A stretch of DNA of 35,845 bases from Psammoneis japonica. Its lineage: Eukaryota. Each line of letters starts with the position of its first letter. Positions within the stretch are counted from its first letter, which is position 1. Below, piece by piece: positions 1-35,845 of this stretch. The stretch is from assembly GCA_008632985.1 (NCBI GenBank), contig QPGO01000380.1, positions 1 through 35,845 on the forward strand, given 5' to 3'. The notes under the pieces were generated by a model, which ran no database searches, was not told the origin of the DNA, and saw only the letters and a program-made list of their open reading frames with translations. Made by a program: the position numbers and the translations under genes.

Positions 1-2339
1 CAGCTCTCCAAGGCTTGCCTCCCTTGGTTGTCGCAGCTGAGGTGGTGCTTGCAGCACTGGAGCACTCGGTCCATTGTTGTGCACCCTTGTTTTCAAAAAC
101 ATGTCATCACCAAAGGGAGTCATTTTGTGTGCAGCATTGTTCCTTTCTCGTGAAGACGGCTTCCACAGCATTGCCACCCAACCAAGTGCATGCAGGCTTC
201 CATCACACATCTTGTCCAATGGATCTTGTTTTTCTGCATCAGCAAGCACAGAGAAGCATCCACTCCTGTTGGCCTTGCCATTGTTGCCTGGTGCTGAAAG
301 GAATTGCAGCTTGCTTTGCTTTGTGCAGGCCTTTTGAAGCTCAACTGCAAGAGTGTTGCATGACATGGACTTGTCCGCCACACATCTCAGCTGCTTGAAG
401 AAATCTTGCTGCATTTCCTGCAGTCTGACCCCTCTTTGATCAGGGTTTTCATCTGTCATGAAAGCCTTCTTGAGTTGATTGAAATCAGCAAGGTTGGCAC
501 TGTCCTTGTTTTTCACACCAACATGCTTCCCCACTTGTGGCATCAGCGCACACCACATTGCATTGCTCCAGGACCAACAGCTGTTTCTGTTTGCCTTGAT
601 GATCACCATCTCTCTCTCTCTCTCTCTTCCAATGATGCCACATGCTGGCACATGGCTCCACACACCCAGTTGAGGTGTTGCACGGTGTCATGCTGTGGCC
701 AAGTCAGCACATGTCTTCTTGGAACAAACCAGTCAGCTGCCAAATCAGGTTCCATGGCTGGGGCCTTGGCATCCTTTGACATTGTGGATGTGAGCATCAG
801 CTGCACATTCCTTTCTCCTGCCGCACCATTGGGATGGGTGGCTGTCAGTTGTGTCAGCACCACAGTTGCTGTTGTGCTCAATTGGCCCATCATTTTGGTT
901 GTTGCAGTGACTGTGTCATTGACACATGCATGCCACATGCAATGTGTTAGAAATGGCTGAACAGCGCTGCTGGCAATGGGGGCAACAGCTCATGGCTTGT
1001 TGCCAGCAACAAAGGGAACAGACATGGAGCAGCACTCACCATGTGCCTTCTCCTCAAACAGAGAACACCATCTTTGACCCATGACAAGTCACTTCTTCTT
1101 GGTGTGTTGTGCTCATGATGGGGTCATCTTTCAGGGAATGTGTTTTGTGTGTTGCTGTCATTTCCCTGTGTTTTGAAAGACTGTGTGTCATTGTGCAACA
1201 TGCGCTTCAGCATTCTTTTGATGCAGCTTCCATTCAATGCCATCATCTTTGCACTCAACATGTGTGCATTCCACAAATGTCTTCAAGCAAATGTCAATGT
1301 TCACCCACACATTGATGGCGTGCTCTTTGAAATTGCACAATTTGCACATTAACACACCATTTTGAAATTTTGCATTCAAATGTCTCTGTCATCTGGGGAA
1401 GTGATGACACTTGCCCAAATGGCCAAAAAGTGGTCCACGCTTTCTTGTGATGATGGTGACTGTGCTGCATTTGTCACATCATTGCAACAACACACGACCA
1501 TGCCATCGCAGCCTGCAACAGCAACTGCACATGTTGCAGCACCAGACACACGACAATGCAAGTTGTCTTTCCAGTCATGCCCTTGTCATGAGCCAAAATC
1601 CAGAGGGAGCACAGATCCTGCCAAAAAGTCCTAGAGAGAATCAATCCCATCATCAAGCAAGGTTGATTGGATGCCAACAACAAGAGACAAAGGAAACTTG
1701 GCCCTCACAAACATGCTTTTGGAAGCAAACAAAAAAGGCTTGGCACAGGAAAGGCCCAGTTGAAGTGTGCTTGCCGCTTGACCCAGAGCCCGAAACAAGC
1801 AGAAAGGATTTGGAAAAGCAAATGTTGGACAGCTTGTCTCATCTGCTCCCCAAACCCAAGAGAAATGATGACTCAGTCATCAATGAAAGAGATGGCCATG
1901 ACTCATGCACTGGTGTGGATCATCAAGCAGCTGTGGCTGGTCATGTGTCATCTGTGCCTGGAGAGGTTGACACAACAATTGCAAATGAGCAACTGATGGA
2001 GCATGCAGGCAGATGTTTGGATGCCAAACAGTGTGATGCTGGTTTTGAGGATGACTTGTCCCATGAGTGCACCTCTCATCTGGGTGCAACCAATGACAAA
2101 ACAAACATTGACCCAAGAACAATGACCAAGAAAGAGGCAGACAATGCTGGCATGGATGCAATGCCAACAAGGGGAGAGGATGATGACAACAACAACAACA
2201 ACAAGCCCACTGTGTTTCCACCCCACACAAACGATCCTTCTCAGCCTGACAACCCAGCCCAACAGCAAATCTTGGTGTGTCGGTGGTCCCAAAACCAGTT
2301 TGTCTGGTGCACAACAGGAATGTTCTGTGAAGGATGTGG

Positions 2340-2930
2340 CGCTGGAAAGAAGACTGCACAAAAATGTTGGGAGAGATGACATTTGCTGCCTGGCAACAGA
2401 AAAGACTTGTGGTGTCAATGCATTTGCTTTGTCCAACCTTGTCAACAAGGGAGCCAACCTTTTTGCCAAGACGTGTCGATGCATGTCTGGTCCATCAGAG
2501 TGATCTCAAACAGATTGCATCTCAAATGCCAAAGGGTGTTCAGTTCAACCAGATTGTGTGGGATCCATTTAACTCCCCACTGTCTTGGTTCAGCAAATGT
2601 CTCACACAAGGAGAATTTTTCAAAAGGAACACAAATGGTTTTGCCAGCACTGGCAGCGTGCCTCTTCTCAAGGACAGAGGATCCATCCTCCCGCCATCCA
2701 ACAAGAAGGTGGTTGCCACACAGATGTCACAACTGGAGCATTTGAGCCATTTGGAATGTGACATTGTGTTTCTGTGGCAAGAGGGCCTGCTGGATAAGAT
2801 GTGTTTGTTGCACGGAACTGAAAGTGCAGATCCCATTTTGCTCAGGCGGGTGTTTGACAAAAAAAATGTTCTCAGTTGCCAAACTGTTGCAGGACCACAC
2901 ATCAAATGTTGATTGAGGAGTCAAATCTTA
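2340..2930 (+). pseudogene. Decayed coding remnant of an uncharacterised protein (frameshifted)
   Basis: Protein-like translation across two frames (RDDICCLATEKTCGVNAF ... GVQFNQIVWDPFNSP ... LLHGTESADP). No family can be assigned with confidence. Confidence 0.25.
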
Positions 2931-3362
2931 ACCAGGCAGCAAAGGAAAGGTGCAAAAAAATCCAGGATGTTGACATGATTTGTTTTGTGCAGCTGCAGAA
3001 AAAGCCAAAGCTGTTGAACAAAAGACAGTTGTGGAAATGGCATGGGCAGAAGTCCAAGATGCAGGTGAGCCTGGAAAACACAGCGTTGTCCCCAACAAGT
3101 GTGAGCAACAAATGAACTGTGTGTCCACAATGGTGTGGCATGACACAAAACAGAAAAAATGTTCTGGTCAAATGTCTTGTCTCTCTTTGCACCCCACTCC
3201 AAGACATCTCATGACAAGACCACATGTGTCAAATGCTCTGCAAAGCACGCAACACGGTTGCCCTGCCCCACCTGTCTGTGGTCCAAGAGACATGTTGGTT
3301 TCCAAGAAAGCACGCTGGCTTCCTTGCGCAACTGTGGTGACATGTGCAACAACAGGGCAACA

Positions 3363-4549
3363 GCCTCAGTTTGGTTGCACTGTGGGATTCCCCAAAATTC
3401 CCCGCGATTGCCACCTTTTGCCATGATTTTCCATGGGAAGCTTGGTTTCCCAGGGAATTGCCATGAACCACGCTTCATCATGTGCACACTCCACACATGA
3501 GTGAAAAATTGCACATTGGCAATTCCCCCACCCGTGCTTCCCTCTCATGCATTTCTGCACCTTCTGCTGGTGTGTGCCGGGACGCAGGAGCCAGACAATC
3601 GACTGACTGCAACAAAAATGGGCATCACGCCATGGCACGTTCACGTCCCATTTGTGACGGCTGTTGTCTGTCAATCACAACACCATTCAATGCATTCAAC
3701 AATGTCGATTGAACGGGAACTGTGGCACAAAACACAAGATGAAATGTGGTTGCACATGTGCAGAACACCAGTGCAATTGAGTTGTCAGTCATCAGTTTTT
3801 CTTTTGTCGTGCAGCCACAAATGCAAGCCATGAGGCACGCAGCAAAGGCCAAGGCAAAAGTGGAACCACACACAGCTGATGACAACAATGTGGCAGATTG
3901 GACAGTCACCTTCATTCTTCCATTTGACACATCTCATGTGCAGAATGAAGGGGGTTGTTTAGATCACTCTTTTGTCATGCATTCAGAAAGGCAAGCCATG
4001 AGGCGCCTGGTGTGAAGGACAAGGCAAAAGTGGAGCCGCACATGGTTGATGAAAATGTGGCAGATTGATTGACAATGTTTGTTCTTCCCTTTGACCCATC
4101 TTGTGCACAGAGTGCAGTGCATCATTTTTTCCTTCTTGTGTCGAGCGGTCACAAATGCAAACCACAACAGCTCCAGAGCAAAGGCCAAGGCAAAAATGGA
4201 GCCTCACATGAGCGGTGTCAATGTGTGTGATTCATTGGCAAAGTTTGTTCTTCCCTTGCTCTGCCATGAGGGGTGGCTTTGTGTTGATTTGTCAATGCAT
4301 CCATCATGGTCATCGGCGGCAGACCGTGGCCGCGGCTGGACAATGTGGAGTGAAGCACACCCGCCCATGCAAAACAATGTGGAAATTGCAGCACCGCGTT
4401 CATTTTTTGTTCCTTCCCCTGACCCCTTTCAGTCATTCCTTCCTGCCAAATTGCCCTCATTTCCTGGGTGTTCCCCAAATGGGTGAGGTGGTTCCCCCTT
4501 GCCCTTGCCATTTTGGGGAATCTCCAAATGGGCAAAACCAAACTGAGGC
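3363..4549. mobile_element. Non-autonomous TIR element (~1.19 kb)
   Basis: Perfect 14-bp terminal inverted repeat GCCTCAGTTTGGTT / AACCAAACTGAGGC, extended by an imperfect GATTCCCCAAAAT match. No transposase ORF. TSD not clean (AACA vs AACC). Confidence 0.6.
3824..4300 (+). repeat. Three degenerate ~170-bp direct repeats inside the TIR element
   Basis: Recurring AAGG(C/A)CAAGGCAAAA(G/A)TGGA...AATGTG...TTCTTCC core near 3845, 4015 and 4181. Confidence 0.7.
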
Positions 4550-4671
4550 AACCACTGATGATGAAACTGCGCATGACAAGGGAGATGAAAGATTGAACGA
4601 GCATCTGTTGAACAAGATGCACTGTCCAAACAAGACAAGCATTGTCAAGGAAATCAACAAAGAATTTTGGA

Positions 4672-5075
4672 GACGCGTTCCAGCTCTAGAGGTGGGACCT
4701 TGCACTGCTGAAAAGTGACACAATCATTTTTTGTCAAATGTCGCATGTTTTGCACATGCATTTCTGAGTGTTCTGTTGTAAAAAATTGCTCCACACTGCC
4801 TGTTTTGCGAAGCCAAAGGCTTTCTGTTGTCTGCGTTCACATCAATGAAAATGCACTGGGTGTGTTCTTCAATGTCTGAAGAACATGCCCGGACATGCTG
4901 CAAAGAATGCACTTCCAGCTGGTGCGAAGGAGGAGATGCATTTGCAAAATTGCCTCTTTTTCTGTTGGCAATCATTGACACATTCATTGCTTGACAATTT
5001 TACTGTGGAGCTCACATGTGGATTTCTGCGGGCCCTGTGTCACAAAAAGTCCCACCCAGAGGACTGGAACCCGTC
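4672..5075. mobile_element. MITE family A, divergent copy A1 (404 bp)
   Basis: TIR GACGCGTTCCAG...CTGGAACCCGTC. 4-bp TSD TGGA at 4668-4671 and 5076-5079. Internal similarity to 35347-35741 in the same orientation. Confidence 0.85.
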
Positions 5076-5079
5076 TGGA

Positions 5080-6720: not shown

Positions 6721-6784
6721 TACAACCTGCAGAGATGTGAGGTGCCAGCTCCTGGCACTTCCTGAATCTTGCTTGGGGTCTTGA

Positions 6785-7179
6785 GACGCGTTCCAGACGC
6801 AGGTGGGAATCCGTGTGACATTGGGCCCGTAGACTTCTACGTGCGAGCTCCGTAATAAAATTATACGGTAATTAAAATGTCAATGATCGCCAACAGAAAA
6901 TGAGGCAATTTTGCGAACGCACAAACTCGCACATGCTTGAAGTACATCATTTTTTACTTGGCCAGTTACATTCTTCAGACATTGAAGAATGTAACTGGCG
7001 CATTGTCATTTCTATAAATTTGTTATATAAAACGTCTGGGGCTTCGCAAAACAGCGAGTCTGGACAATTTTTTTAAACATCACACGTAGAAATCTACGTA
7101 CGAAACATGCGACGGATGATAAAAATTGTTGTTGTCACACGGCAGCACTGCGAGCTCCCACCTAGGGCTGGAACGCGTC
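6785..7179. mobile_element. MITE family A, young copy A2 (395 bp)
   Basis: Perfect 12-bp TIR GACGCGTTCCAG / CTGGAACGCGTC. TSD TTGA at 6781-6784 and 7180-7183. Colinear reverse complement of 35347-35741. The only TpA-rich island in the window. Confidence 0.95.
6961..6999. repeat. Perfect 17-bp-arm hairpin at the centre of MITE A2
   Basis: GCCAGTTACATTCTTCA-gacat-TGAAGAATGTAACTGGC. Confidence 0.9.
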
Positions 7180-7183
7180 TTGA

Positions 7184-12381: not shown

Positions 12382-12715
12382 CTGGAAAAGTGCTCACCAC
12401 CCATCATCTTTTGTCTGCTGCACGTGCACTTCTCTCTGCTCTTGCTTGCTGGACTGAGTGGGGCTGGTCTCATTGCAGAAGGCAGCATGTTGTCTGTTGC
12501 CATTTCCTCCAGCTTGCGCTGCAAAAATTCTGGTGAGCAACAAATGGCAATGCAACAGACAGCAACAAATCTCAATTTGATGCCAAAATAAAGAACAGCT
12601 GTCAGCTGCATTTTTTGCCCCTCTTGTCCACAATCAAATCCTCTCTGTGCCTCCAACACAGTGTCCATTTCCAAATGTCATTTCTGAGTGACAAAGAGCA
12701 ATTTGTCATTGGTGT
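12382..12715 (+). repeat. ~320-bp dispersed repeat, copy 2
   Basis: Colinear with 10198-10520. Confidence 0.85.
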
Positions 12716-13064
12716 GCATCCTCACAATTCCCATGGCATCAGCGCTGGCATCCAAGTCAGAGTGAAAAGCAATGCTGCAGCATCACGATGGCACTGTCAA
12801 TGAGTTCTGATGTGCAAAGGCTTCACAACAAACATTGAAGACAAAAATTGTGACTCATTTGACATCATTTGTGAAAGACCCCCCATTGTTGCACGCAAAA
12901 CATGGACAGAGCAACATGAAAATTGTGTGATGTGCACATGAAAACATTGAAGATGCAGCCACTCAAATGCAAAAATGATGATTTTAGAAAAATGTGTGCT
13001 GCAGGGCCCTGCCAGTGCAGACCAACATTGCCATTTGACTCTTCTGGCTGAGCTTGTGTGCAGC

Positions 13065-18700: not shown

Positions 18701-18911
18701 GCATGTTGGGTGTCATCAGCGTTGGTTGTGATCCGCTGTCCGCGGAGCCATGCATTGCTTTTTTGTGCCAGAAATGTGCAGAAACCCACGTGTTTTCTCA
18801 CTTTTTGTCTTAGAGATTTCTGCACGAGGGCATGCCAAAAACTCCTGCAGTGACATTTGGAATTTTTGCGTTGGCGCACGCGCATTTTCAACAGATGCCT
18901 GAAATGACTGT

Positions 18912-21900: not shown

Positions 21901-22149
21901 GGTGCCACATTGGTGTCAATGCTTTCACCTTGGGCACAGGCATTCCGCAACAATTCAATCCTGTCAGCTCATTTTCATTTTTCTCACTCGTGATTTCATC
22001 ATTGTGCAACAAATGTGTGTCACACAAAGGTTCATGTTCAATTGGTGCACTTGCATCAACAGCAATGGCGTTGTCAACTTCAAAGCTGACACCAGGACTG
22101 GAGCGGCACTCCAAACTGCACCACAATCCAGGTCCTCCTGGACATGGAC

Positions 22150-23282
22150 CTTGTCCAATGTCTGTTCCTTCTGACATCTTGTCAGAACCTCCTGGCGGAC
22201 CGTGGCCTGCCATGTCGAAGTGGTGCACATCTGTGCCCTGTTCTTGCAACTGAGTGCCAGTTGGAGGAACTCGTCAAGCTGGATGAGCATTTGGTTCTCT
22301 TGAACTGCTCTGCACCTGATTTTGATTTGCACAATGACTCTGAAGTGAATTTTGCAGACCGCATCCATTGTCCATGCTGTCTTGGTTGCGGCCACGGCCA
22401 CATCTGCCTTGACCATGTCCAAAGCTGTTGTTGGCAATGTGACCACCGCCACGTCCACGTCCTGCAGGATTGAAACTCTGAGGACCACAATGCTGGCCTC
22501 CACAATTTCCTTGGCCTGGACATGGAGCCTCACCACATCCACGACCAAATCCTTGACCTGGCATTGGTGTTCCTCAACCACCGCCTCTCTGAAAACAAGG
22601 GTTTGGATCATGGTCAGCACTCTTGGGCACATCCTTGGCCTCTTGCGCTTTCTGGATTCATCTTCAGGCTTGCTGTTGCTCTTCTGATCAGCAAATCCTT
22701 TCTCATTGGACACACACTGAATGATGTTTTCCAAAGAATCTGTGCCGACATCCTTCCTGGCATGCACATGATTCTGCTTTGAGGTCATCGGCATTCCCGT
22801 GAATGCGTTGTTTTTGATTTGCTGCTCATTGAGCAAAAGCTCAGTGCCTGGCAGTTTGTTGACACAATGTGACATCTGAATCATTCTGTCAGCACTTTCA
22901 CAAGGAGAATCACCACAAGGTTTAGAAAATTTTTTCAAGAATTCAAACATTGCATCACGAGCTTGATGATCGCAGCATTGTTGATGGACCTGCCCATGGT
23001 CCGATCTGCTTCCGCAACACCCGAAACAAGATTGCTTCGCACATCTTGAGCATTGTCTTTGAGTGCTTCTTCAAAATGAGTGAATTTCTTGGGTCCTTCA
23101 TCACAGTCCAGATGCTCAACACAGCTCTCAAAGTGCTCTGCTGCACAAAGCAAACACTCAATGCCGTGCTTGCCAGTGAACTGAGGACAAATTTTCTGTT
23201 TCTTGGTGCCACCATTGCAGTTCTGTACGAGCTTCACTTTGGTGCCCAAAATTTCAGTGTTTGAAGGTTGGCTTGCACACAA
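22150..23282 (-). pseudogene. gag: G1 gag remnant
   Basis: KICPQFTGKHGIECLL...FTHFEEAL, followed by a Gly/Arg-rich tail, upstream of the protease. Confidence 0.7.
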
Positions 23283-23512: not shown

Positions 23513-23846
23513 TGCAGTGTCGCACACCCCATTTTTCTGATGTGCAGTGTTGATGATCCCACCAGATGCAAGAGGAGCCATTGCAATGGGCATCGCTGAA
23601 AGCGACCTCATCACCTCGGTCTCTCTCTCACGACTTTGTTGTCACTCAAGTCTTCACCTCATTGGACCTTGCACTGTGATTGCAGTCAACTCAAGAGCTG
23701 GATGGAGACTGGGAACAACACAAACAGATTGAACAAACATGAGAAAAGAGAATTACGAGCAAGAGCAGCAGCTTGGGCTTTGACCACCAGAAGCAAGTGC
23801 AACAACGCAAATGACACAAGCAGAATTTGGCAAGCTGAGTGCATCA
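23513..23846 (+). repeat. G2 5' LTR (TG...CA)
   Basis: Start matches the reverse complement of 31297-31393, which abuts a PPT. Remainder matches 35214-35845. Ends in CA just before a TGG. Confidence 0.75.
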
Positions 23847-23848
23847 AT

Positions 23849-23866
23849 TGGAGTCAAAGGCAGAGT
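23849..23866 (+). promoter_or_regulatory. Putative primer-binding site
   Basis: TGGAGTCAAAGG 2 nt after the LTR end, conserved in G3 (35200-35211, minus strand). Cognate tRNA not identified. Confidence 0.5.
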
Positions 23867-23905
23867 CCTTGGAGAGGACTGTTTCGCAATTGCACTCCAT
23901 GTTGC

Positions 23906-25561
23906 ATGATGAGTGATTCTTTAAAAGAACCTTGCATCAATTGTGAGGCAAAATTTGAACATTCTGATTTGGACGACATGAAATTGAGTCAGTCGTGTGA
24001 TGATGGCAGCACTCGCACTTGGAAGTGTCCGTGCATTCATGGCACCCATGGCATTGAAGCTTTGTTGTTTGTTGAGGATCGTTTTTGCAAGATCGCCATG
24101 AAATTGGAGTTCACCACCGGCGAGGAATTGCTTGACAATTTTGAAGAAGTGTTGGCCGACGCTGCTGAGGACAAATGGGCGAATTTGACTGACGCTGTCA
24201 CTGATGCTGACAAAACTGTTGCGCGTTTTGATCAAGAGATGAGTCATTTTTACCTGTCTCATTGTGACAATGAGGCATGTGACACTGTGATTGAACACTT
24301 GCCAACCCTGAAGAAACTGTTCAAATTTGAAGCACAGGCGCGTGCTGATCGCATGGAGACCTCAACTTGCCACTCTGACAAGTTGCCAGGAAATGCTCCT
24401 CAAGTCAATGATGCTCAGAAGAAGAAGATGATCTTTGACAGCTTTCCTCATCAGCGGCATGAGATGTGCACTCAAACAGGACAATCAATGGCCAACGACA
24501 GTCTCACTGAGATCATTGGCTGCGCGAACAATGAGAAATCCTTTGCTGACAAGAGCAGCAACAAGAAACAGGACAAGAAGCAAAAGTGCCCTGTGCATGT
24601 GCTGGGCGCTGAAAAGAAGATGTGTCATGACTTTGTCGTTGTGAAAATCATGAGCCAGTTTAGAGTGGAGAAAGTGGGATCGTGCGAACAGGGAATCTTG
24701 CCAAATCCCTGTTTGTTCGCATTTGGATCGCATCAAATCGATCGTGCATTCGCATTGTGGATCGTGCGAATCAAGCCATCACGCACCATGCATGAGTGAT
24801 GTCATCGTGTGGAATCACGCCACCATTGTGGGCCAGACGACGGGCTGGTGTGCTTCACATGGATGCTCTCTCAGCGTCCTTCTGGAATTTCCTAAGACCT
24901 GGAGCCATGCCCTCCTGTGGTCGTGCTTCCCAGGTGCACGTTGACAACACTACGTTGTCACGCACAAGAGGCTTGTGCACGGTCTTGCCGTGTTGTCCAG
25001 CAGCGAGGCATGCTGCAAAAGAGCAACACTTCATCCTCTCAGGCTTCCAGGCAAAGTCAAGGGAACAATGCTTGAGCTGATCCAGAGCCCAGGTGCCCAG
25101 TGCACGCCAATCATGACCACAAATGGAAGGATTGCATTTTGAATCCGGACAGCCAAAACTGTCAACCAAGGACAGACCGTGGAGGTCATGGTGGAGTTCG
25201 AGGTGGAGGCTGTGGAAACTTCCAAGGTGGAGGTTCACAAGGCCAAGGAGGTCGTGGCAACTTCCAAGGTCAAGGACGTGGCAGCCATGGCAATCAAGGC
25301 AATTGTGGTGGCCGAGGACATGGCAACTGCCAAGGATGTCAAAATTCCCAAGGCGGAGGATCTCATCATCAAAATCAAAATGAAACCGAAGCCAACGGGG
25401 ACACCCAAGGCTGTGAAAATCTGGCTGGAACAGCTCCTCCTGGTGGCTGGCAAATGGAGTCACACCATTTTGATCAAGGAGGGCCTCGTGAGACACGAGG
25501 TGGAAATGGATGCAACCAAGGCGGTCGTTTTCCTCAAGGCCAATGCAGCTGGTGTAATTGA
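23906..25561 (+). pseudogene. gag: G2 gag, interrupted by a ~430-bp insertion
   Basis: MMSDSLKEP...KCPCIHGTHGIEALLFVEDRF, then CPVH...HKWKDCILNP knuckle and an RGG/Gly-rich tail. Confidence 0.8.
24587..25017. mobile_element. Insertion in G2 gag, probable solo LTR of another family
   Basis: Absent from G3 (empty site near 34470-34485). TG...CA termini with TSD AAAG, or alternatively a 7-bp duplication GCAAAAG. Confidence 0.7.
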
Positions 25562-26010
25562 CAAGGGATGGAAGTGCCCAAGTCAGAGCGTGTCGCTCAA
25601 TCTTTTTATGTTTCATGTGATTGTGATTGATGTGTGTGTTTTAATGTTGATGAAAGTGTGGGGGACCTGATGGAATCCTGTGCTGTGAATGAAGAAGAAA
25701 TGGGCAGCGCCTTGGAGCATGCTGCGCCAACCCCAAAAACTGCGACTCCCAAACCATTGAATGTGGTGCCTGTGACGTTGATGGCAGCGCACACAATTCA
25801 AAATCAAGAGAGCAAGTGAATGTTGTGTGTGTCATTAGATTCAGGGGGCACTGACACACTTGTGCATTCTTGAGTTTTGCCCAAGGGAGCCAATCCAACC
25901 ATGAATGATGAGGGACAACTGAGCTTTCAGACAGCAGCCGGATGATGTGAATCCTCCCGACATGTTGTCATGAAGGATTTGGTGCTTCCCAAGTTTGACA
26001 AGTCCAAACA

Positions 26011-29000
26011 CGGCAAGTGTCCCACACCGGATTGACAGAAGCTGCAGCTTTGCTGATTGAGCATCTCCGGCGACGAACCCCAGTGTCAGCATCCAATTTT
26101 CTTGCACCTGAAGAAGTCAGTGGGAAATTCAAGTCGTGGACAGAATCCACCTCTGCTTTGATCAAGTCCGGTCTTCATTTGGGCCGCTGGAAGGCTGTGC
26201 ATTCTAAGCACATGTGTTCTTCAGAAACGGATCCACAAGGTGACCCCACTGTGAAAAGCATTGAATTGGATGAAGTCCAAGACAGCCTGCAACAGATCCG
26301 CTTGAATCTGCTCAACTGCGCACTCAAATGGGGACATTCTTGCAACAGGTGGTGTGACGTGGTCAACATTGTGATCTTCAAAGAGCCAGGCAATGACAAG
26401 ATCCACCATCTCCACGTGATCCATGTGCATGAAGCAGACTTCCAGTTGATTGCCAATGTGAAATGGCGTGCCCTGGTGCAACATGTGGAACAACACCGAT
26501 CATTCAATCCAGGTGTCTACGGCACTCGAGCTTTCCTGTGTGCTCAGACTCCTGCATTCCTTGAAGTTCTGATGTTGGAGAGACATCAAGGGTCTCTCGC
26601 AAGACGTTGGTCACGAGTGACAATGACTGCACCTCGTGTTGTGACAGGAATCTCCCGGTCCTCATGGCGATCATGTCAGTCAGTTTGGGCATGGAACCAT
26701 CAGCAGTGGCTGCAGCAATTGCAACCAACCATCTAGCCAGGCACTGGTTGCCAACCTTGTTGGGTCTCTCTGAGGAATTTCACTCACACAATGCAGAACA
26801 CCCCATCTGCGGTGCTGGCCAAGGCAGTGGCAACTCACCTTTTTACTGGAACAACTTGTGCAGTGTTCGAATCACCAGATGGGTCTCATCAGCTCAACAT
26901 CTGCACAAGAGGACATGCAGACGATGCGCCCAAGCAGGTGAATGACTTCAGAGCATCTCCTCAGCCTTCTGCAGAAGATTTGGCTCCCAAATTGCAGCAC
27001 AATGACCAACTCTGGTGCAACTTGCTCCATGCCAGTGGACACAAACCAGAACTCCCCAAGTGTTCCTTTCATGCTGTCGATTGGGACTTCTCAGAATTTG
27101 GTGAACTGAGCCTCCAACCGCATGACCAAGACATGTCTGTGGAAATTTTCTCAGCCGATCACTCCTCTTCCAGACACAGCAAGCAGCTGTCTCGCTTTGC
27201 TCCGCACAAAACACTGCCAAAGAAACAGCAACAAGTGCTCCAAGCCAAGAGTGATGGAAAAGCGTCATTCACCAGGGCTGTCCCTCTAGACCAGACCAAA
27301 TTGTGGAGATGCTGCCACGCGTGTCATTTGCCGTTGATGTCTTTTGTTCTTGCTGGCTCTCACTTTGCTTCCAAAGTGTTGAAACAAATGCAGCAACGCA
27401 CTGTGAGAGTTGCATTTGCCAAATGCGGTTGCAACAGGAATGCAAAGTGCTTGACACTGTGTGGCCCTCAATCTCTTGGTGGTGGTGGATTTCGTTCTCT
27501 TGACGCAGAACAGGGAATTGCCCAAATGCAACAGCTGTTGAAACATTCTCGAGGCGCACAGCATCTTGTTCAAGACGATCAACCACACGCTGCGGCTCAC
27601 ATTGCCATTGCATGGAATCAGCTGCATTCAGGCACAGGGGTCAGCTTCCTCAGAGACATTGACACTCCTCATCCACATGACAAGTTGCTGTGGCTTGCAT
27701 CAGTTTGGTCTTTTCTGCAGAGCATTGAAGGCCACATTGCATTGTCCCAAGATGGAGCACTCCCCTTGCAGAGAGTCAACGATCAGTTTTTAATGGATGT
27801 TGCTCTGGAGTCACAAGAATTCACTTCAGAGAAATCCGATGGATCAATCATTGCCACTTGCATCTTCGGGTCCTGACAGTCTTGGATGTCACTCTGGCAG
27901 ACGGACGCTTCTTAGATGAGTCCAAAGTTTGCGGTGATCTCACTTGCCTCAGCAGTGACAGCACCCTCAACAACGTCGAACAGATTGCACCTTGCCACCG
28001 TGCATGGAGTCCTTGGATGTGGCCATGTGAGCTGTTGTGTCATCAAGACTCAGTTTGTTTGAAAGCTCCCTCAGGAGACTGGCTTGTGCCCCCTTCTGAA
28101 ATGAGGATGCAATGTTCAGCGCATTGGTCTCCCAAAGAATCACACCTGTGCGTTCGATCTCCGTCAGGATTTGACATTTTTCCAGTTCAGGACACTTTTG
28201 CCACGTCGCTGCACCAACTCGAAACGGTTCCCTCCCCCTCTGACTCTTCATTCCCAGTTGAGATTGTCTCCACAGATGACGGCAGATGGAGGTGCATTCC
28301 TCATTGCCCGAAACTCTTGGTTGAAACAAGCATTGCCTCCCTGGGAGTCCTCTCTCTTTTCAGACATTGATTTCCGCACTCCCGTTTGTGAACTGATGGA
28401 CCATTTTGCATCAAGTTGCCCAGTTGCGGGCAGCGACGGATCCGTGCTTCATCACGATGCAACCTTTGGATGGACGATTGCATTCAACGGCAGACCCTTG
28501 GTGGATTGTGCTGGTCCTGTGTTTGGTCGTTCGCCATCATCCCATCAAGCTGAGGCTTGCGGTTTTCTCTCCCTGATTCGGTTCATCCATTGTCTGACAG
28601 AGTTTTGCAAGATGTCAACGCATGAAGGTGTTGACAACTGGTGTGACAACAAGGCCTTGGTCCGTGTCCTTTCCAGATTGTCTTCCAGCCACCCGTCCAT
28701 TGACCCGTCGCCACAAGAGCATTCCGACAGAGACTTTTGTCTGCAACAACATGATGCCAATGTTCTTTCATCTGACTGGGATGTCATCAATGAAACACAC
28801 TTAACGCTTGAAGCCATTCCTCAGGCTCTAAATCCTTCTTCCCCCGGGCAGGCACTGTCCACAGCTTGGGTGAAAGGACACCAGGACAGACAAGCTCCAG
28901 TGGAGACTCTCCCACTGAATGCACAAGTCAACGTGCGTGCAGACAGGTTGGCAGGAAGACACCAAGGACAATGTGACGCAGACACAACGGAGGTGCTTCC

Positions 29001-30118
29001 CTTTCCCCATTGTCAATCACACCTTTGCCTCACCAATGGAACGGTCACTGCAGGAATGAAATCCACGGTCAGATGTGCTGCAACGGCTCCTGCTCTCTTG
29101 GCATGCATTCGGGAAAGAAACGATTGGGATGAATCTGTCACAGAAAAGATCGGCTGGAAGGTCCATGCAACATTGGGGTGCAGGTGCTCCAAGAAACTTG
29201 TCTCCACGGTTGAACTCATCCACGACCTCCTTCCAACAAACAAGATCACTCATCGGTGCAATCCTGTGCGGCCACATCATTGCCTCATGTGCGAACACCC
29301 CATGGAGGGTCGTGACCACATTTTAAGATGCCCCGCCAACGAGGCCTGGCATCGCAAATTCCTGCAGGGCTTGCAAAAATGCTGCGACAAAATTGACACA
29401 ATGCCACCTCTGCGTGATCTGCTGCTGACTTCCCTTGAGACATGGCTGGAAGGTGAGATGCAGCATGAATCTGACATTGCCCCGATGCTGCGAACGTCAT
29501 GGAAAGCCCAGTCAGAAATGGGATGGCGAAAAGTTTTTAATGGACAGTGCTCTGCCCTTTGGAATGTGTTTCAGGAGATGCATCTTCGTGAGATGGGTCT
29601 GTTGGAGAAACACAGGAAAGAGAATCGACCTCCTCCTGTGTGGGGAGTGCAGATGGGAACTTGCATTTGGAAGTCCTGGTGGGAACTGTGGGAAGAACAC
29701 AATCAGGAGGTTCATGGTCATGACGCGGATTCAAGGAAATCATCTTTACAGCGTCAGGTGGAAGCCGAGCTCATGGCTGTTTACAACAAAAGACAGGATT
29801 GTTTGTCTAAAGACAGAGAGGTGCTGCTGGATTCAGCAGACGACCACATGACCCACTCCACACTGCAGATTGTGAATTGGGTTGCTGTGGTTAAACCACG
29901 TCCAAAAGAAAGCCCAAAGAAGGCAATGCGCGAGGTGCTTCATGGCACTCACTCCATTGCAAGCTGTTTTGGATGGGCATCATCTCATGGTGATGCCCCT
30001 TTCGGCTGATCCCAAGAAGCTTCTGCCGCACTCAACGGTGCACTGGAAGTGTGGGTCAGCCGGCGCTGGCTTGGCTGGCAAAGGAGTGACAGCACTTTGA
30101 ATGTAGATCTGGTTTTTT
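26011..30118 (+). mobile_element. 5'-truncated non-LTR retrotransposon with RT, RNase H and Cys/His motif (Ambal-like)
   Basis: TSD TTTGACAAGTCCAAACA at 25994-26010 and 30119-30135, with the empty site present in G3 (33488-33504). Motifs SGLHLGRWKA, GAGQGSGNSP, GHADD, GPQSLGGGGF, SDGS...SSHQAEACG...WCDN...WVKGHQD...NVRADRLA, CLMC...DHILRC. Clade assignment is an inference. Confidence 0.92.
26017..30009 (+). pseudogene. LINE ORF2 remnant (RT-RNase H), frameshifted
   Basis: ORFs 26017-26736, 26607-26945, 26791-27876, 27858-28370 and 28171-30009 join into one polyprotein. Confidence 0.88.
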
Positions 30119-31243
30119 TTTGACAAGTCCAAACAAGTTGATGGAATTGTGGCTCAAGTGTTTGATTTGCCGTGCAAGCATGATGTGACATTGGGTCAAG
30201 ACTTCCTGGCTAAAGCCGGAACAGTGTTGGACTTCCGGTTTGGAGTCATGAAGTGGTTGGATGCTGCAATCCTGATGAAGCAATCCAATCATTGGAGCCA
30301 AGTGCAGAGTTGGTTGGATGTGCTGGATGATCACAAGGAGGACAAAGCCAGTGCAGAATCATCAAGTCAAACCTTCATGTCAGATGCGAAGCATGAAAAA
30401 GTGTCGACCGAAAAAGTGGCGCAATCGCAATCTCATTTGACGCAGGAGCAACGCGATGAACTTCAACCCGCACTTGAGAGTCATGAAACTCTTTTTGATG
30501 GAACCCTTGGCAAATGTCCACACAAGACTGTGCACTTGGAAGTTGATGCCAATGCTGTCCCCTTTCATTCTAAAGCCTGTGAAGTGTCCAAACAAGACGA
30601 GGCGGTTTTCAAGAAGGAACTGCAACATCTCTGCAATGTTGGTGTGCTGGAGCCAGTGGGACCAACTCAATGGGTGGCAGAAACCTTTGCTCCACTTGCC
30701 AAGTTGACCGGCAAAAGCAAATTGGAATGGACTCCAGAGTGTCAGAAAGCCTTTGAAGATGTGAAGACTTCAATGATGGATGATGCCCTTTGGGTCCACC
30801 CAAATCACAACAAGCCCTTCCATGTTTGCACCGATTCCGCCGATTGTCAAATGGGCACAGTGATCATGCAAGATCAAAAGCCGGCAGCACATTGGTTGCA
30901 GAAGCTCAGTTCAGCACAGCAGAATTGTTCAACCACCAAGAAAGAACTTCTCGCGGTGGCAATGTGTTTCAAAGAATTCCGTTCCATGTCACGGGGCTGA
31001 TTGTGCTGTTTTCACTGATCACAAAAATCTCACCTTTTGCACACTCAATTCTCAATGAGTGCTCAGGTGGAGGCTCTTCTTGGGAGACTTTGCTCCAACC
31101 TTTGAGTGTGTTGACAGCAAGGACAACCTGTTGGCAGACTGCTTTTCGTGATTGCCACGCATGGATCCACCAATGGAAGGGAAGTGCACTCCGAATGAAG
31201 GCCAACTGACAGATTTCAAGTCTTTATCTTGTCAGACCTTGCA

Positions 31244-31393: not shown

Positions 31394-31405
31394 CTCTTCC
31401 CTTCC
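31394..31405 (-). promoter_or_regulatory. Polypurine tract
   Basis: GGAAGGGAAGAG immediately before the TG of the 3' LTR. Confidence 0.85.
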
Positions 31406-31519
31406 ATGATTTGAATCATGAGAATCATGCAGGACTCCAAAATTTTAAAATTTCAATTCAAATTCCATGAGAGGAAACAAGGGAAACCCAAGTGTTGGTG
31501 AAAAAACCCTTGACCTCAA

Positions 31520-33930
31520 ACTCGACACGGTGTGATGTGCCGAACATCAAGTTGTTCCACCACATGAGGCGCCCGTTGAACTGCAACAGTGCCATTGACA
31601 TGCACCTGAACAATGGGATGATGGCCATGTGCTCAAGGTGCGAGCTTTGAAGGATCAACTGTCTTGACAAGCACTTGATTGCCAACTTGAAAATCACAAG
31701 ATCATTGTTTGGCATTTGCTCTGTGGAGATTTGTGCCAATGATTGCTTGTCGATGTTCTTGAACAGTGGCAAGATCCGCCAGAACTGGCAGGTCTAAAAT
31801 CATGTCATGGTGGAATGCCATGGCACCGGGTGAAACCTTGAGAGCTTGGGATGCCGCGCATTGCATGGCATGCATTGCTGTTGCCAAAGCATCATCCACC
31901 AGTTGATTGCCTTGTCCGACATTCTGTGGAGGATGAAGATGAAGCAAAGTGCGCAAGACATTGCCAGCAGTTTGATGCACGCGTTTGCATGCCGCATTGG
32001 CTTGTGGATTTCTGGATGCAGTGGGCACATCTTCCACTCCTGCCTGTTGCAACAATGGTTGAAAATGTTCTCCAACAAATTCTCTGCCATTGTCATGAAT
32101 GCAACGGTTGGGACGAGGATGACGAGACAACCAACAATTTTGAAATTCCTGGGAGACATGTTCGGAGGTTTTGTTGTCCACACGGATGAGTTCAGCAACA
32201 TTCAAAACCGCATCAATGCAAGTCAAAGCGTTGAATTTGATCTCCTGGCCCTGAGTGTCAATCTTCCAGGGACCAATGAGGTCGACTGCAGCTTCACTCC
32301 ATGGTGACAAAGATGCTTTGCGTTCAGGTGGCTCCCCATGTCCAGGACCCAAAGTTTTCAAGTGTTGACAATCAACACAACAAAATTCTTTGCAGGTCCA
32401 ACAAAGGACAGGATGACAAAAATGAGAGCCAATGGTTGAATGCATGCAATGCATTCCTGCATGTCCCAACATCCTGTGATGCCATCGAATCATGTCAGGC
32501 AATGAAGCAGTGGGAATGCCGATTTTCCAGTCTGTTGGAGGAGCATTGGGATGAGCTCAACAACAAATCACAGGACGTTGGTTCACACATTCAATCACGA
32601 ATCGTTCCGGATGTTGTTGTTGCATGTTGTTCAATTCCACATCAACAAATTGACGCTGTTGAATTCATTGCACAGTTGTTGGGTTTTGCATTTCATCAAG
32701 TGAAGGACAGTCCAAATGGAGTGACAATCGCACAAAGGTCCTTGGAGTCATTGCCCAGCTCCACATGACAGTGAAACATGGTGAGGTCCAACTTGGTCAA
32801 AAATTCACACCCTGATCGTCGGTGTAAAACATCTTGAACAATCGGTGGAGGGCAAACTTTCCGCTTGAGAACCTTGTTCAACTCTCGAAAGTCAGATGCC
32901 CACCTCACTCGTCCATCTTTCTTGGGTGTCACAAAGGCTCCTGCTGCCCATTCCATTGGTCCCACTGGCTCTGGCACACCAATGTCACAGAGATGTTGCA
33001 GTTCCTTCTTGAAAACCGCCTTGTCTTGTTTGGACACTTCACAGGGCTTTGGAATGAAAGGGAACAGCATCAGCATCAACTTCCAAATGCACAGTCTCGT
33101 GTGGACATTTGCCGAGGGTTCCATCAAAAAGAGTTTCATGATTCTCAAGTGCGATTTGAAGTTTGTCGCATTGCTCCTGCATCAAATGAGTTTGCGATTG
33201 CGCCACTTTTTTGGTCGACACTTTTTCACACTTTGCATCTAACATGAAGGATTGACTTGACAATTCTGCGTTGGCTTTGTCCTCCTTGTGATCGTCCAGT
33301 GCATCCAACCAATTCTGCACATGGCTCCAATGACTGGATTGCTCCATTGGGATCGCAGCATCCAACCATTTCATGACTCCAAACCGGAAGTCCAACACTG
33401 TCCCGGCTTTGGCCAGGAAGTCTTGACCCAATGTCACATCACACTTGCACGGTGAATCAAACACTTGAGCCACAATTCCATCAACTTGTTTGGACTTGTC
33501 AAACTCGGGAAGCACCAAATCCTTCATGACAACATGTCGGGAGGATTCACATCATCCGGCTGCTGTCTGAAAGCTCAGTTGTCCCTCATCATTCATGGTT
33601 GGATTGGCTCCCTTGGGCAAAACTCAAGAATGCACAAGTGTGTCAGTGCCCCCTGAATCTAATGACACATGCAACACCTGCTTGCTCTCTTGATTTTGAA
33701 TTGCACGCACTGCCATCAACATCACAGGCACCACATTCAATGGTTTGGGAGTTGCAGTTTTCGGGGTTGGTGCAGTGTGCTCCAAGGTGCTGCCCATTTC
33801 TTCTTCATTCATGGTGTGGGATTCCATCAGGTCGCCACACTTTCATCAACATCAATGCATGTGTGCTCATCACAATCACACGAAACATAAAAAGATTGAG
33901 CAACACGCTCTGACTCGGGCACTTCCGTCC
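31520..33930 (-). pseudogene. pol: G3 pol: protease, partial RT, integrase
   Basis: SLDSGGTDT (PR); WAAGAFVTPKKDGRVRWASDFRELNK, TKLDL, TPFG (RT); WHHRMLGHAG...CVDC, VDLIGPW, IHDNGREF, NPQANA (INT). Confidence 0.92.
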
Positions 33931-33934
33931 CTTG

Positions 33935-35154
33935 TCAATTCAGCCAACTGCGTTGGCCTTGAGGAAAACGACCACCTTGGTCACACCCATTTCTGCCTCG
34001 CGTCTCACGAGGTCCTCCTTGATCAAAATGGTGCAACTCCACTTGCCAGCCACCAGGAGGAGCTGTGAAGCCGGATTTCCACAGCCTTGGGTGTCGCTGT
34101 TGGCTTGGGTGCCATTTTGATTTTGATGACAAGATCCTCCGCCTTGGGAATTTTGAGATCCTTGGCAGTTGCCATGTCCTCAGCCACCACAATTGCCTTG
34201 ATTGCCACAGCTGCCATGTCCTCGACCTTGGAAGTTGCCATGACCTCCTTGGCCTTGTGAACCTCTGCCTTGGAAGTTTCCACAGCCTCCACCTCAACCT
34301 CCACCATGACCTCCATGGTCTGTCCTTGGTCGACAGTTTTGGCTGTCTGGATTCAAAATGCAATCCTTCCATTTGTGGTCATGATTGTCATGCCCTGGGC
34401 ACCTGGACTCTGGATCAGCTTGAGCATTGTTCCCTCGACTTTGCCTGGAAGCCTGAGAGGATGAAGTGTTGCTCTTTTGCTTCTTGTCCTGTTTCTTGTT
34501 GCTGCTCTTGTCAGCAAAGGATTTCTCATTGTTCATGCAGCCAATGATCTCGGCGGGACTGTCGTTGGCCATTGATCGTCCTGCTCGAGTGCACATCTCA
34601 CACCACGAATGAGGAAAGCTGTCAAAGATCATCTTCTTCTTCTGAGTGTCATTGACTTGAGGAGCATTTCCTGGTGACTTGTTAGAATGGCAAATTGAGG
34701 TCTCCGTGCGATCAGCACGTGCCTGTGCTTCAGATTTGAACGGCTTCTTCAGGGTTGGCAAGTGTTCAATCACAGTGTCACGTGCCTCATTGTCACAATG
34801 AGACAGGTAAAAATGACTCATCTCTTGATCAAAACGCGCAACAGTTTTGTCAGCATCAGCAACAGCATCAGTCAAATTCGCCCATTTGTCCTCAGCAGCA
34901 TCGGCCAACACTTCTTCAAAATTGTCAAACAATTCCTCGCCGGTGGTGAGCTCCAATTTCACGGCAATCTTACGAAAACGATCCTCAACAAACAACAAAG
35001 CTTCAGTGCCATGGGTGCCATCAAAACGCGGACACTTCTGAGTGTGAGTGCTGCCATCATCACATGACTGGCTCAATTTCACGTCCTCCAAATCAGAATG
35101 TTCAAATTTCACCTCACAACCAACACAGGGTTCTTTCAACGAATCACTCATCAT
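33935..35154 (-). pseudogene. gag: G3 gag
   Basis: Near-identical to G2 gag but without the insertion. One frameshift in the Gly-rich tail. Confidence 0.82.
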
Positions 35155-35346
35155 GCAATGTGGAGCACAATTGCAAAACAGTCCTCTCCAGGGACTCCAC
35201 CTTTGACTCCAAATGATGCACTCGGCTTGCCAAATTCTGCTCGTGTCGTTTGCGTTGTTGTGCTTGTTTCTGGTGGTCAAAGCCCAAGCTTCTGCTCTTG
35301 CTCGTAATTCTCTTTTCTCACATTTGTTCAATCTGTTTGTGTTGTT

Positions 35347-35741
35347 GACACGTTCCAGCCCCAGGTGGGAGCTCGCAGTGCTGACGTGTGACAACAACAA
35401 CTTTTGTCATCCGTCGCATGTTTCGCGTGCAGATTTCTGCGTGTGACATTAAAAAAAATTGTCCAGACTCGCTGTTTTGCGAAGCCCCAGACGTTTTGTG
35501 TGACAAATTTATAGAAACAACAATGCGCCAGTTGCATTCTTCAATGTCTGAAGAATGCAACTGGCCAAGTAAAAAATGATGTGCTTCAATCATGTGCGAG
35601 TTTGTGCATTCGCAAAATTGCCTCATTTTCTGTTGGCGATCATTGACATTTTAATTGCCGTGTGATTTTGCTGTGGAGCTCGCACGCAGAAGTCTGCGGG
35701 CCCAATGTCGCATGGATTCCCACCTGCGTCTGGAACGCGTC
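35347..35741. mobile_element. MITE family A, copy A3 (395 bp), inserted in the G3 5' LTR
   Basis: TIR GACACGTTCCAG / CTGGAACGCGTC. TSD TGTT at 35343-35346 and 35742-35745. Empty site visible in the G2 LTR near 23714. Confidence 0.95.
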
Positions 35742-35845
35742 TGTTCCCAGTCTCCATCCAGTTCTTGAGTTGACTGCAATCACAGTGCAAGGTCTAACGA
35801 GATAAAGACTTGAGTGATGACAAAGTTGTGAGAGAGAGACCGAGG

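Follow-up and report, generated by a model that had tools for sequence, protein, structure and literature searches.

About 95% of the TA in the whole stretch of DNA analysed here (35,845 nucleotides; hereafter, the window) has turned into TG and CA, which is near saturation. We consider it likely that this window of dead transposons was changed after their insertion by a process that converts A:T to G:C only at TpA and that ran nearly to saturation alongside CpG decay of the 5-methylcytosine (5mC) type. That a TpA-directed hypermutation process is real is held here with high confidence.

Composition of the window and its elements

Dinucleotide counts gave 137 TA for the whole window versus 2427.4 expected (observed/expected ratio, o/e, 0.056), while 200 mononucleotide shuffles gave a mean of 2425 (sd 36, minimum 2338). 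TG (3825) and CA (3869) were both in excess with o/e 1.72, CG was depleted (831, o/e 0.40), AA had o/e 1.26, and the TG+CA excess of about 3226 comes close to the sum of the deficits in TA (2290) and CG (1225). The original prediction, which had roughly counted a hundred TpA outside the MITEs where a couple of thousand were predicted, and had noted abundant TG and CA and a near absence of Tyr from all six frames, agrees with these counts: 31 of the 137 TA lie in MITEs (23, 5 and 3 in copies A, B and C, respectively), and Tyr accounts for 70 of the 71,686 six-frame codons (0.10%), with Cys at 5.73% and His at 4.96%. Stop codons in the six frames are 138 TAA, 66 TAG and 1909 TGA. TpA o/e was 0.23 or lower in all 35 one-kb windows, and no boundary of the depleted domain was found within the 35,845 nucleotides. 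Thresholds given in the cited portions of a preprint on Bigelowiella natans (TpA at most 0.43 and CpA+TpG at least 1.52; Mettrop et al., bioRxiv 10.64898/2026.01.13.699255, 2026) hold for 34 of the 35 one-kb windows, the single miss having a CpA+TpG of 1.50.

The window is a transposon graveyard, composed of three Ty3/gypsy elements, a LINE-like insertion, MITEs and unrecognisable single-copy DNA. Its features are as follows.

1..35845, no strand: continuous TpA-depleted domain with TpG/CpA excess and CpG depletion (dinucleotide counts, one-kb windows)
4671..5077, minus strand: MITE copy C, an older, 71%-identical relative (sequence comparison)
6784..7180, plus strand: MITE copy A, young and TA-rich, with terminal inverted repeats (sequence comparison)
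12672..18674, no strand: single-copy stretch (contig depth 30-82)
18818..23070, minus strand: E1, decayed Ty3/gypsy retroelement (Pfam RVT_1 and RT_RNaseH_2; tblastn with 9 homologues)
23614..31241, plus strand: E2, Ty3/gypsy copy (self-BLAST; tblastn; Pfam RT_RNaseH_2)
28105..30006, plus strand: 634-aa open frame within the insertion in E2, LINE-like (homologue comparison)
31519..35845, minus strand: E3, Ty3/gypsy copy, inverted relative to E2 and truncated by the window edge (self-BLAST, tblastn)
35347..35742, minus strand: MITE copy B, within E3 (empty site retained in E2; 3-bp duplication)

The pol of E1 (PR-RT-RNaseH-IN) occupies 18818-21911, with a gag-side ORF upstream, to 23070; its RT/RNaseH stretch of 257 aa contains no Tyr and has an in-frame TGA at a conserved Arg. 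E2, which is about 91% identical to E3 and is without the integrase end, is split by a 4.1-kb insertion (26011-30118), and E3 has pol at 31519-33836 and a gag-like part at 34327-35151. The 634-aa frame is the relic of an unnamed family of TE proteins whose homologues have a weak, sub-threshold match to zf-RVT, and its Tyr content is 0.2% versus 2.3-4.3% across 8 homologues. MITE copy A holds 23 TpA in 397 bp; its family is present in very many copies, with contig depths summing to 77,846 where single-copy DNA has about 33. In the single-copy stretch there was no recognisable gene and no Pfam match at E<=0.001.

Direction, context and timing of the change

The change was polarised at 888 sites conserved in at least 60% of at least 30 of 104 homologues. 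At codon position 2, 21 of 40 TpA sites show A>G, versus 5 of 208 pooled sites outside TpA (ApA 1/60, CpA 0/51, GpA 4/97), a clear excess; the absence of such an excess over other A>G changes had been named in the original prediction as grounds for refuting it. At codon position 1, A>G by preceding base was 24/35 for T, 3/29 for A, 1/59 for C and 2/47 for G, and T>C was found in 15/40 cases before A and in 0/110 before T, C or G. Both this polarisation and the comparison of MITE copies A and B place the changes at TpA, almost only as A>G or T>C transitions.

The same direction is seen in conserved Tyr. The 40 such sites of the three Ty3/gypsy elements, judged from the 104 homologues, are now Cys 19, His 15, Phe 3, Trp 2 and Tyr 1 (E1: Cys 7, His 7, Phe 2, Trp 1, Tyr 1; E2: Cys 5, His 4, Trp 1; E3: Cys 7, His 4, Phe 1). 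The claim that conserved Tyr reads Cys or His in every retroelement therefore stands for these three, with 34 of 40 sites, and is weaker for the LINE-like ORF with 5 of 13 Tyr columns (Cys 3, His 2, Tyr 1, other 7, in an alignment of 30-34% identity). Both strands are affected, as seen in the TG and CA totals (3825 versus 3869) and in Cys:His ratios of 7:7, 5:4 and 7:4 in elements lying on either strand.

TpA has thus become TpG or CpA by A:T>G:C change at TpA on both strands, separately from CpG decay; polarised sites, MITEs and the E2/E3 comparison all agree with the distinct mutator that had been proposed. Deamination of 5mC also yields TpG and CpA and has left its mark in the window, with CpG o/e 0.40 and losses of conserved Arg (of 63, today Gln 10, stop 5, His 5 and Cys 3), but it has no route from TAY to TGY or CAY. 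Of the TG/CA excess, CpG decay explains no more than about one third. In the 2444 bp over which E2 and E3 align, TG<>CA leads all double differences at adjacent positions, with 42 cases; CpG decay can account for about 16 of them.

The process acted on resident DNA after insertion, independently for each copy, including a DNA transposon and single-copy DNA, and a very young MITE copy was spared. MITE copy B entered E3 after E2 and E3 had diverged, since E2 keeps the empty site at about 23714-23717. At the 23 TpA of copy A, copy B is changed in 17 (CA 13, TG 4) and copy C reads CA 10, TG 5, TA 2 and other 6. The substitutions between A and B (n = 34) fall on TpA of A in 20 cases and on TpA of B in only 1, and 24 of the 34, read from A to B, are T>C (15) or A>G (9). 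Pooled single-copy bins have 20 TA versus 522.5 expected (o/e 0.038) and repeated bins have o/e 0.052, where single-copy means present-day, judged at >=85% likeness, with duplication in the past possible. Since single-copy stretches are depleted like repeats, present-day duplication is unnecessary for the process, and the name "reverse RIP" used in the original prediction is misleading as a family label. Among discordant sites no strand-coordinated clusters were found (runs tests, P = 0.36, 0.93 and 0.65), a result that is neutral for a deaminase.

The base 3' of A in surviving TpA, with both strands counted, is A in 115, G in 56, C in 31 and T in 10. ATAT, ATAC, ATAG and CTAT have 0 survivors each versus 360-432 TG/CA counterparts. 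This suggests a susceptibility in the order TAT > TAC > TAG > TAA, an order derived from survivors rather than from events, to which context-dependent creation of TpA may contribute.

Comparison with known systems

The original prediction knew of no description of such a process. The preprint cited above reports the same TpA>TpG/CpA process as a hypermutation of integrated viral and other foreign DNA in B. natans. According to its cited portions, all but one of 231 single-nucleotide mutations in two viral regions of mutation-accumulation lines were A>G or T>C, all of those on TpA (10.64898/2026.01.13.699255). Points in common with the window are the restriction to A>G/T>C and to TpA, the two outcomes TpG and CpA, the presence of RT and transposase domains in TpA-depleted, CpA+TpG-enriched sequence, and the fact that single-copy DNA can be affected. 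The differences are that the rate there was measured in living lines, whereas the window is known from its footprint alone, with saturation (0.056) across 35.8 kb or more; the long-term footprint reported for B. natans is modest (Rho 0.45 in an NCLDV region, with clusters defined as at least three one-kb windows; 10.64898/2026.01.13.699255). The carriers there are giant-virus and virophage inserts, and here Ty3/gypsy, LINE-like and MITE elements. The hierarchy by 3' neighbour is visible in the window and is not discussed in the main text of the preprint.

Repeat-induced point mutation (RIP) of ascomycete fungi similarly inactivates transposons in place by dinucleotide-specific transitions on both strands with a strong skew. 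RIP requires duplicated sequence and a sexual cycle, and it is a C>T change, mainly CpA>TpA, that lowers GC, whereas TpA>CpA/TpG in the window raises it. RIP was rejected as an explanation because TpA is lost here, not gained, and the present-day single-copy bins reveal no dependence on duplication.

Candidate chemistry and alternative explanations

Of the possible chemistries we rank adenine deamination first, at about an even chance. Adenine would be deaminated to hypoxanthine, which pairs with C, by a candidate TadA/ADAT2-like deaminase, expected to carry an HxE-PCxxC site and acting on A only after T, so that TpA would become TpG, or CpA through the opposite strand. Its target would be domains of silenced chromatin and not repeats as such. 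The mutations at TpA have destroyed what the elements encoded (Tyr>Cys/His, Ile>Val/Met/Thr), with ordinary 5mC-type CpG decay alongside. TadA and ADAT2-ADAT3 share with this scheme the A>I chemistry and a 5'-T/U context, because their tRNA target A34 always follows U33; we know of no natural member demonstrated to be active on chromatin-embedded double-stranded DNA. Amphioxus ADAT2 is reported to deaminate DNA in the cited part of one study (PMC10354150), and the B. natans preprint, in the portions cited, proposes an ADAT2-like deaminase as a candidate (10.64898/2026.01.13.699255). Foreign or silenced DNA may be the target, as suggested by the young TA-rich MITE, the normal Tyr content of homologues and the B. 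natans precedent.

Because TpA is palindromic, the Tyr, MITE and polarised counts fit a lesion on A and a lesion on T equally, T>C appearing as A>G on the complementary strand. Oxidation of T in TpA by a TET/JBP-type enzyme to 5-hydroxymethyl- or 5-formyluracil, or another T modification, with mispairing with G, is the foremost alternative, though we regard it as unlikely. Dinoflagellate 5-hydroxymethyluracil lies preferentially in TpA and TpC, and 5-formyluracil leads to A:T>G:C transitions. However, at conserved sites T>C is absent at TpC (0/20), TpT (0/51) and TpG (0/39), and the 5'-T rule agrees with the U33-A34 context of TadA/ADAT2. B. natans moreover has, by the cited portions of the preprint, an ADAT2 homologue with a residue linked to DNA editing, a candidate only (10.64898/2026.01.13.699255).

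Two other readings are very improbable. Error-prone synthesis by a polymerase of the eta type, incurred at WA motifs while this chromatin is repaired, was a candidate of the original prediction and would give the A>G errors at WA for which this polymerase is known; WA covers ApA, yet A>G is found at 1/60 ApA versus 21/40 TpA and AA is enriched (o/e 1.26), which disfavours this candidate. The other reading involves no mutator, and attributes the depletion to selection against TpA (a TA-cutting nuclease, TA-targeting transposons or UA-labile RNA) or to a genome-wide low TpA. Mild under-representation of TpA is common, and 80 related RT loci in metagenomes have a median o/e of 0.705 with a range of 0.42-1.08, but even the lowest of these exceeds the 0.056 of the window more than sevenfold. 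Selection would not swap catalytic or structural Tyr for Cys or His in dead, stop-bearing elements, and a young MITE with 23 TpA lies within the depleted domain.

Less probable still is an origin in RNA, with retroelement transcripts hyper-edited from A to I in the manner of ADAR and then written back into the genome through reverse transcription and re-insertion. AID/APOBEC and ADAR of animals are likewise deaminase-type, context-specific hypermutation systems against selfish nucleic acids; APOBEC, however, makes C>U changes on single-stranded DNA during reverse transcription, and ADAR acts A>I on double-stranded RNA, whereas the substrate in the window is A:T pairs of resident double-stranded genomic DNA, a DNA transposon included. 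Three of the mutated elements are retroelements, and ADARs favour a 5' U according to the discussion in the B. natans preprint, as far as cited here. Against this, the MITE, mobile as DNA, is mutated alike, single-copy DNA without retroelement homology is equally depleted, the strands are hit equally, E2 and E3, once separated, arrived at different outcomes for shared sites, and the B. natans mutations, in the cited portions, arise within resident single-copy DNA.

A sequencing or assembly artefact, such as systematic miscalls at a modified base, can practically be dismissed, no support for it having been found and reads that fail to support the TG/CA alleles having been named beforehand as a refutation: contigs from an independent assembly of run X1 (about 30x; possibly the assembly's own sample, hence not fully independent) match single-copy parts of the window (4984-6811, 7152-8499, 12532-14333, 14373-16613 and 16611-18289) with 0 differing letters, so the depletion is not an artefact, 88% of sampled 31-mers are present, a TA-rich MITE lies on the same contig, and paralogues carry TG versus CA at shared sites.

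For two gene families of the window, most matches are without a name and the organism-named close homologues are diatoms only, Fragilaria crotonensis being the sole one for the 634-aa frame; B. natans, by contrast, is a chlorarachniophyte, a rhizarian alga. Because of these homologues, the window probably represents a second lineage with a B. natans-type process, in a diatom-type genome. To our knowledge, no natural case of programmed A:T>G:C change in genomic DNA had been described before one 2026 preprint. We see the odds as balanced that TpA-directed editing operates also in a diatom-type (stramenopile) genome, where it would reach saturation across whole transposon islands (36 kb or more, single-copy DNA included), would follow the TAT>TAC>TAG>TAA hierarchy and would accompany CpG methylation decay. 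If so, this would be a widespread and possibly ancient eukaryotic genome defence targeted to chromatin domains, a mirror image of fungal RIP in which GC goes up. The enzyme behind it would then be a naturally occurring editor of adenine bases in double-stranded DNA, of interest to both genome-defence biology and base-editor engineering for its TpA context and chromatin substrate. A second case, and a saturated one, from another supergroup would mean that the process is no peculiarity of a single strain. It would supply a clean footprint of long-term action (di- and trinucleotide rules, with retroelements, DNA transposons and single-copy DNA hit alike and CpG decay co-occurring), and would make the enzyme search comparative, through deaminase or TET/JBP genes common to the affected lineages. 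Such regions mislead annotation because their ORFs are long, with TAA and TAG gone, and their proteins are Tyr-free, and the local rise in GC has a bearing on how repeats are dated and genes predicted in these algae.

TpA depletion and reliability of the sequence

TpA occurs 137 times in the 35,845-base window against 2427 expected from base composition (observed/expected ratio, o/e, 0.056); the lowest count among 200 mononucleotide shuffles was 2338. The window-wide o/e values of other dinucleotides are 1.72 for both TpG and CpA, 0.40 for CpG and 1.26 for ApA. The deficits of TpA (2290) and CpG (1225) together roughly match the surplus of TG plus CA (about 3226). The window-wide loss of TpA with an excess of TG and CA, described in the original prediction, is therefore borne out. 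Every one of the 35 one-kb windows has a TpA o/e of 0.23 or lower, and 34 of the 35 pass the thresholds (TpA <=0.43 and CpA+TpG >=1.52) by which a preprint on B. natans defines its most extreme 5% of windows (bioRxiv 10.64898/2026.01.13.699255). Among six-frame codons, Tyr amounts to 0.10%, Cys to 5.7% and His to 5.0%, and TGA outnumbers TAA and TAG about ten- to thirty-fold; because TAA and TAG are so rare, long meaningless ORFs are found throughout the window.

Of the elements listed below, the three Ty3/gypsy elements have been called by tblastn with full-length homologues and by Pfam.

Elements in the window
18818-23070, minus strand: E1, decayed Ty3/gypsy element
23614-31241, plus strand: E2, decayed Ty3/gypsy element, interrupted by a 4.1-kb insertion at 26011-30118
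31519-35845, minus strand: E3, decayed Ty3/gypsy element, about 91% identity to E2
6784-7180: MITE copy A, with terminal inverted repeats
35347-35742: MITE copy B, with terminal inverted repeats
4671-5077: MITE copy C, with terminal inverted repeats
28105-30006, plus strand: LINE-like ORF of 634 aa, inside the 4.1-kb insertion

The sole local exception to the depletion is MITE copy A (6784-7180), whose 397 bp contain 23 TpA. TpA o/e is 0.038 in the bins with no second copy at 85% likeness or higher (5335-6668, 7336-8002 and 12672-18674) and 0.052 in the repeated bins without MITE copy A. Judging from the depleted single-copy DNA, targeting looks domain-wide rather than repeat-wide.

A search of sequencing runs gave one DNA run (X1) and no RNA run among the matches listed, and X1 contains 88% of the 31-mers sampled from 9001-19000. 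Contigs built independently from X1, at about 30-35x, have no differing letters at 4984-6811, 7152-8499, 9428-10354 and 12532-14333, and further X1 contig matches at 14373-16613, 16611-18289, 21492-22099 and 22695-23394 are likewise identical. Assembly and consensus errors are excluded by these contigs, whose support is not fully independent since X1 may be the assembly's own sample. An artefact is also opposed by the presence of a TA-rich MITE in the same contig and by sites where one paralogue has TG and the other CA.

Direction and sequence context of the change

Polarisation used an alignment of E1, E2 and E3 with 104 homologues at 47-66% identity. A codon site was retained when it had 30 or more homologues, of which 60% or more agreed; this left 888 sites. 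The 40 conserved Tyr sites in the three elements now read Cys (TGY) at 19, His (CAY) at 15, Phe at 3, Trp at 2 and Tyr at only 1, and the Cys:His counts by element (7:7, 5:4 and 7:4) are symmetric whichever strand the element lies on. At codon position 2, A>G was found at 21 of 40 sites preceded by T, and at 1/60, 0/51 and 4/97 sites preceded by A, C and G, respectively. At codon position 1, T>C was found at 15 of 40 sites followed by A and at none followed by T (0/51), C (0/20) or G (0/39), while A>G, a class consisting of Ile>Val, Met>Val, Thr>Ala, Asn>Asp and Lys>Glu, was found at 24 of 35 sites preceded by T and at 3/29, 1/59 and 2/47 sites preceded by A, C and G, respectively. In line with the original prediction, the polarised spectrum shows A:T>G:C in large excess at TpA relative to all other contexts.

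The window has undergone CpG decay as well, and the 63 conserved Arg sites of the elements now include 10 Gln, 5 stop, 5 His and 3 Cys; TGY or CAY cannot arise from TAY by this decay. Tyr amounts to 0.2% of the LINE-like ORF, against 2.3-4.3% in its homologues, and the 13 conserved-Tyr columns of a noisy alignment (30-34% identity) read Cys 3, His 2, Tyr 1 and other 7. As a baseline, TpA o/e is 0.42-1.08 (median 0.705) at 80 metagenome loci encoding related RTs; none of the 80 lies below 0.42, one of the two search patterns having needed intact Tyr and thus disfavoured mutated copies.

On both strands and with MITE copies excluded, the base on the 3' side of the A in surviving TpA is A in 115 cases, G in 56, C in 31 and T in 10. 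No ATAT, ATAC, ATAG or CTAT has survived, against 360-432 TG/CA counterparts each, and 30 TTAA survive against 633. From these survivors, rather than from observed events, the order of susceptibility would be TAT > TAC > TAG > TAA.

Action on genomic DNA and the candidate lesion

MITEs move as DNA. MITE copy B lies inside E3 with a 3-bp duplication, at a site which is empty in E2, and so it arrived after the divergence of E2 and E3. Where copy A has its 23 TpA, copy B reads CA at 13 sites, TG at 4, TA at 4 and others at 2, and 20 of the 34 substitutions between these copies fall on TpA of A and 1 on TpA of B. From the sparing of the young MITE copy, targeting looks time-dependent. Summed contig depth is 77,846 for the MITE family and about 33 for single-copy DNA, which points to a very abundant family with a genomic copy number of the order of 2000. 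Among the 40 of 687 matching rows that were listed, copy A differs from essentially all contigs at three positions only. Copy A is close to what most contigs read, and so the family has probably been active recently. In the orientation of copy A, lost TpA was resolved as 13 CA to 4 TG in copy B and 10 to 5 in copy C. This CA bias is nominal only (binomial estimate for copy B about 0.05); it could stem from strand-coordinated events in short elements.

Over 2444 aligned bp of E2 and E3, TG<>CA is the commonest adjacent double difference (42 cases), and TA is retained in both at 4 sites only. Such differences were rejected as a pure proof of ancestral TpA, because independent CpG decay yields the same pattern: CpG is kept in both copies at 29 sites and in one at 61, and under a simple model such decay would account for about 16 of the 42. 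We estimate that at about 26 sites an ancestral TpA was independently resolved, the opposite way in each copy. No strand-coordinated clustering was detected among the discordant E2/E3 sites (runs tests not significant), and so the strand bias of the MITE copies does not recur there.

Taken together, the MITE, E2/E3, single-copy and orientation findings rule out RNA editing with subsequent retrotransposition, and they argue against a strictly duplication-triggered process. The change is a TpA-specific A:T>G:C process that acts on both strands of genomic DNA after insertion, is near saturation and proceeds beside CpG decay. The separate TpA-specific mutator of repeat-rich DNA that the original prediction proposed is supported by the polarised spectrum, MITE copies A and B, and the Cys:His symmetry.

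For the lesion, we favour deamination of adenine, which would be converted to hypoxanthine by a TadA/ADAT2-like enzyme. In the tRNA substrate of TadA/ADAT2, A34 is invariably preceded by U33, and such an enzyme is favoured because the 5'-T rule mirrors this context. A further reason is that the only experimental study of the process, that of B. natans, found an ADAT2 homologue with a residue linked to DNA editing, and its authors proposed an ADAT2-type deaminase (10.64898/2026.01.13.699255). Since TpA is self-complementary, the sequence fits a lesion on either base. A thymine-side lesion of the 5hmU or 5fU type is the less likely alternative. ApA is stable (A>G at 1/60), and on this ground Pol eta-type WA mutagenesis, the other mutator of the original prediction, was rejected.

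Relation to known systems and other features of the window

The view that such a process had not been described has been overtaken by the 2026 preprint on B. natans. In its mutation-accumulation lines, 231 single-nucleotide mutations were found in an integrated NCLDV and a virophage, all but one being A>G or T>C; every one of these A>G and T>C changes was on TpA, and 324 low-TpA CDS were enriched in RT and DDE domains (10.64898/2026.01.13.699255). In the literature searched, mostly outside subscription journals, we found no description beyond this preprint and none for diatoms. Fungal RIP is opposite in direction, and it also differs in that duplication is not required in the process of the window. 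What is new here is the degree, i.e., saturation over at least 36 kb, the joint targeting of retroelements, a DNA transposon and single-copy DNA, and the 3' neighbour hierarchy; the lineage is probably also new for TpA hypermutation.

The 190 RT homologues are mostly unnamed, and every organism name on close homologues is that of a diatom (Amphora, Thalassiosira, Nitzschia (two), Chaetoceros and Ditylum (three)); one MMETSP entry with a truncated taxon name aside, the only other named one is Haematococcus (29% identity). In a tree of 45 rows (the window and 44 of the 190 homologues, i.e., the top 30, named ones and distant outgroups), the window RT falls inside a 100/98-supported clade containing all named diatom sequences, as sister to an environmental sequence and on a long end branch (0.86 versus 0.12). 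The LINE-like ORF has nine homologues at 24-34% identity, eight of them usable and one named (Fragilaria crotonensis). No homologue named as B. natans was found among the 190 RT and 9 LINE-like ORF matches, and the protein database gave no close paralogue from the same genome, with nothing above 66% identity. The host is probably a diatom or a related organism, and B. natans is a less likely source. The eight usable homologues of the LINE-like ORF have no Pfam family except a weak, sub-threshold zf-RVT match (in three of the four scanned), and this ORF probably encodes a C-terminal portion of a non-LTR retroelement protein.

In a Pfam scan of 132 stop-to-stop ORFs, RT, RNaseH and integrase matches all lay within the elements, and no recognisable gene was found in the remaining half of the window (1-18.8 kb, unannotated); three weak, sub-threshold matches outside the elements (LRAT, DUF3703 and Orf78) were taken as chance. 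The tRNA and Rfam scans of the window gave nothing, and self-BLAST gave no LTR pairs for intra-element dating at E<=1e-10. In the ESM Atlas, the gag-side ORF had no usable match and the pol ORF only a generic integrase zinc-binding cluster without useful taxa.

Several local features were also observed. The deepest CpG depletion (o/e 0.14-0.17, with TG/CA of 1.84-2.0) is at 1-3000, which is presumably older or more heavily methylated than the rest of the window. At 7001-10000, where no gene is recognisable, the AT skew is -0.31 (T greatly exceeds A on the plus strand) without a matching GC skew, and direct repeats with 77% identity (8712-8903 and 8952-9143) lie inside. A CpG-rich island at 10801-11800 (o/e 0.97-1.67 per 200 bp, the rest of the window being CpG-depleted) consists of tandem repeats with arrays at 11012-11131 and 11354-11546, including (CGACA) x24 and further units of 10, 20 and 40 bp of the type TTTGTCG...CGACAAAA. 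It contains no TA and is a member of a repeated family, with a summed depth of about 3900-5000 against 33; it may escape cytosine methylation. On either side of this tandem-repeat block is a direct repeat pair with 85% identity (10210-10534 and 12404-12729), possibly the terminal repeats of an element that was not recognised.
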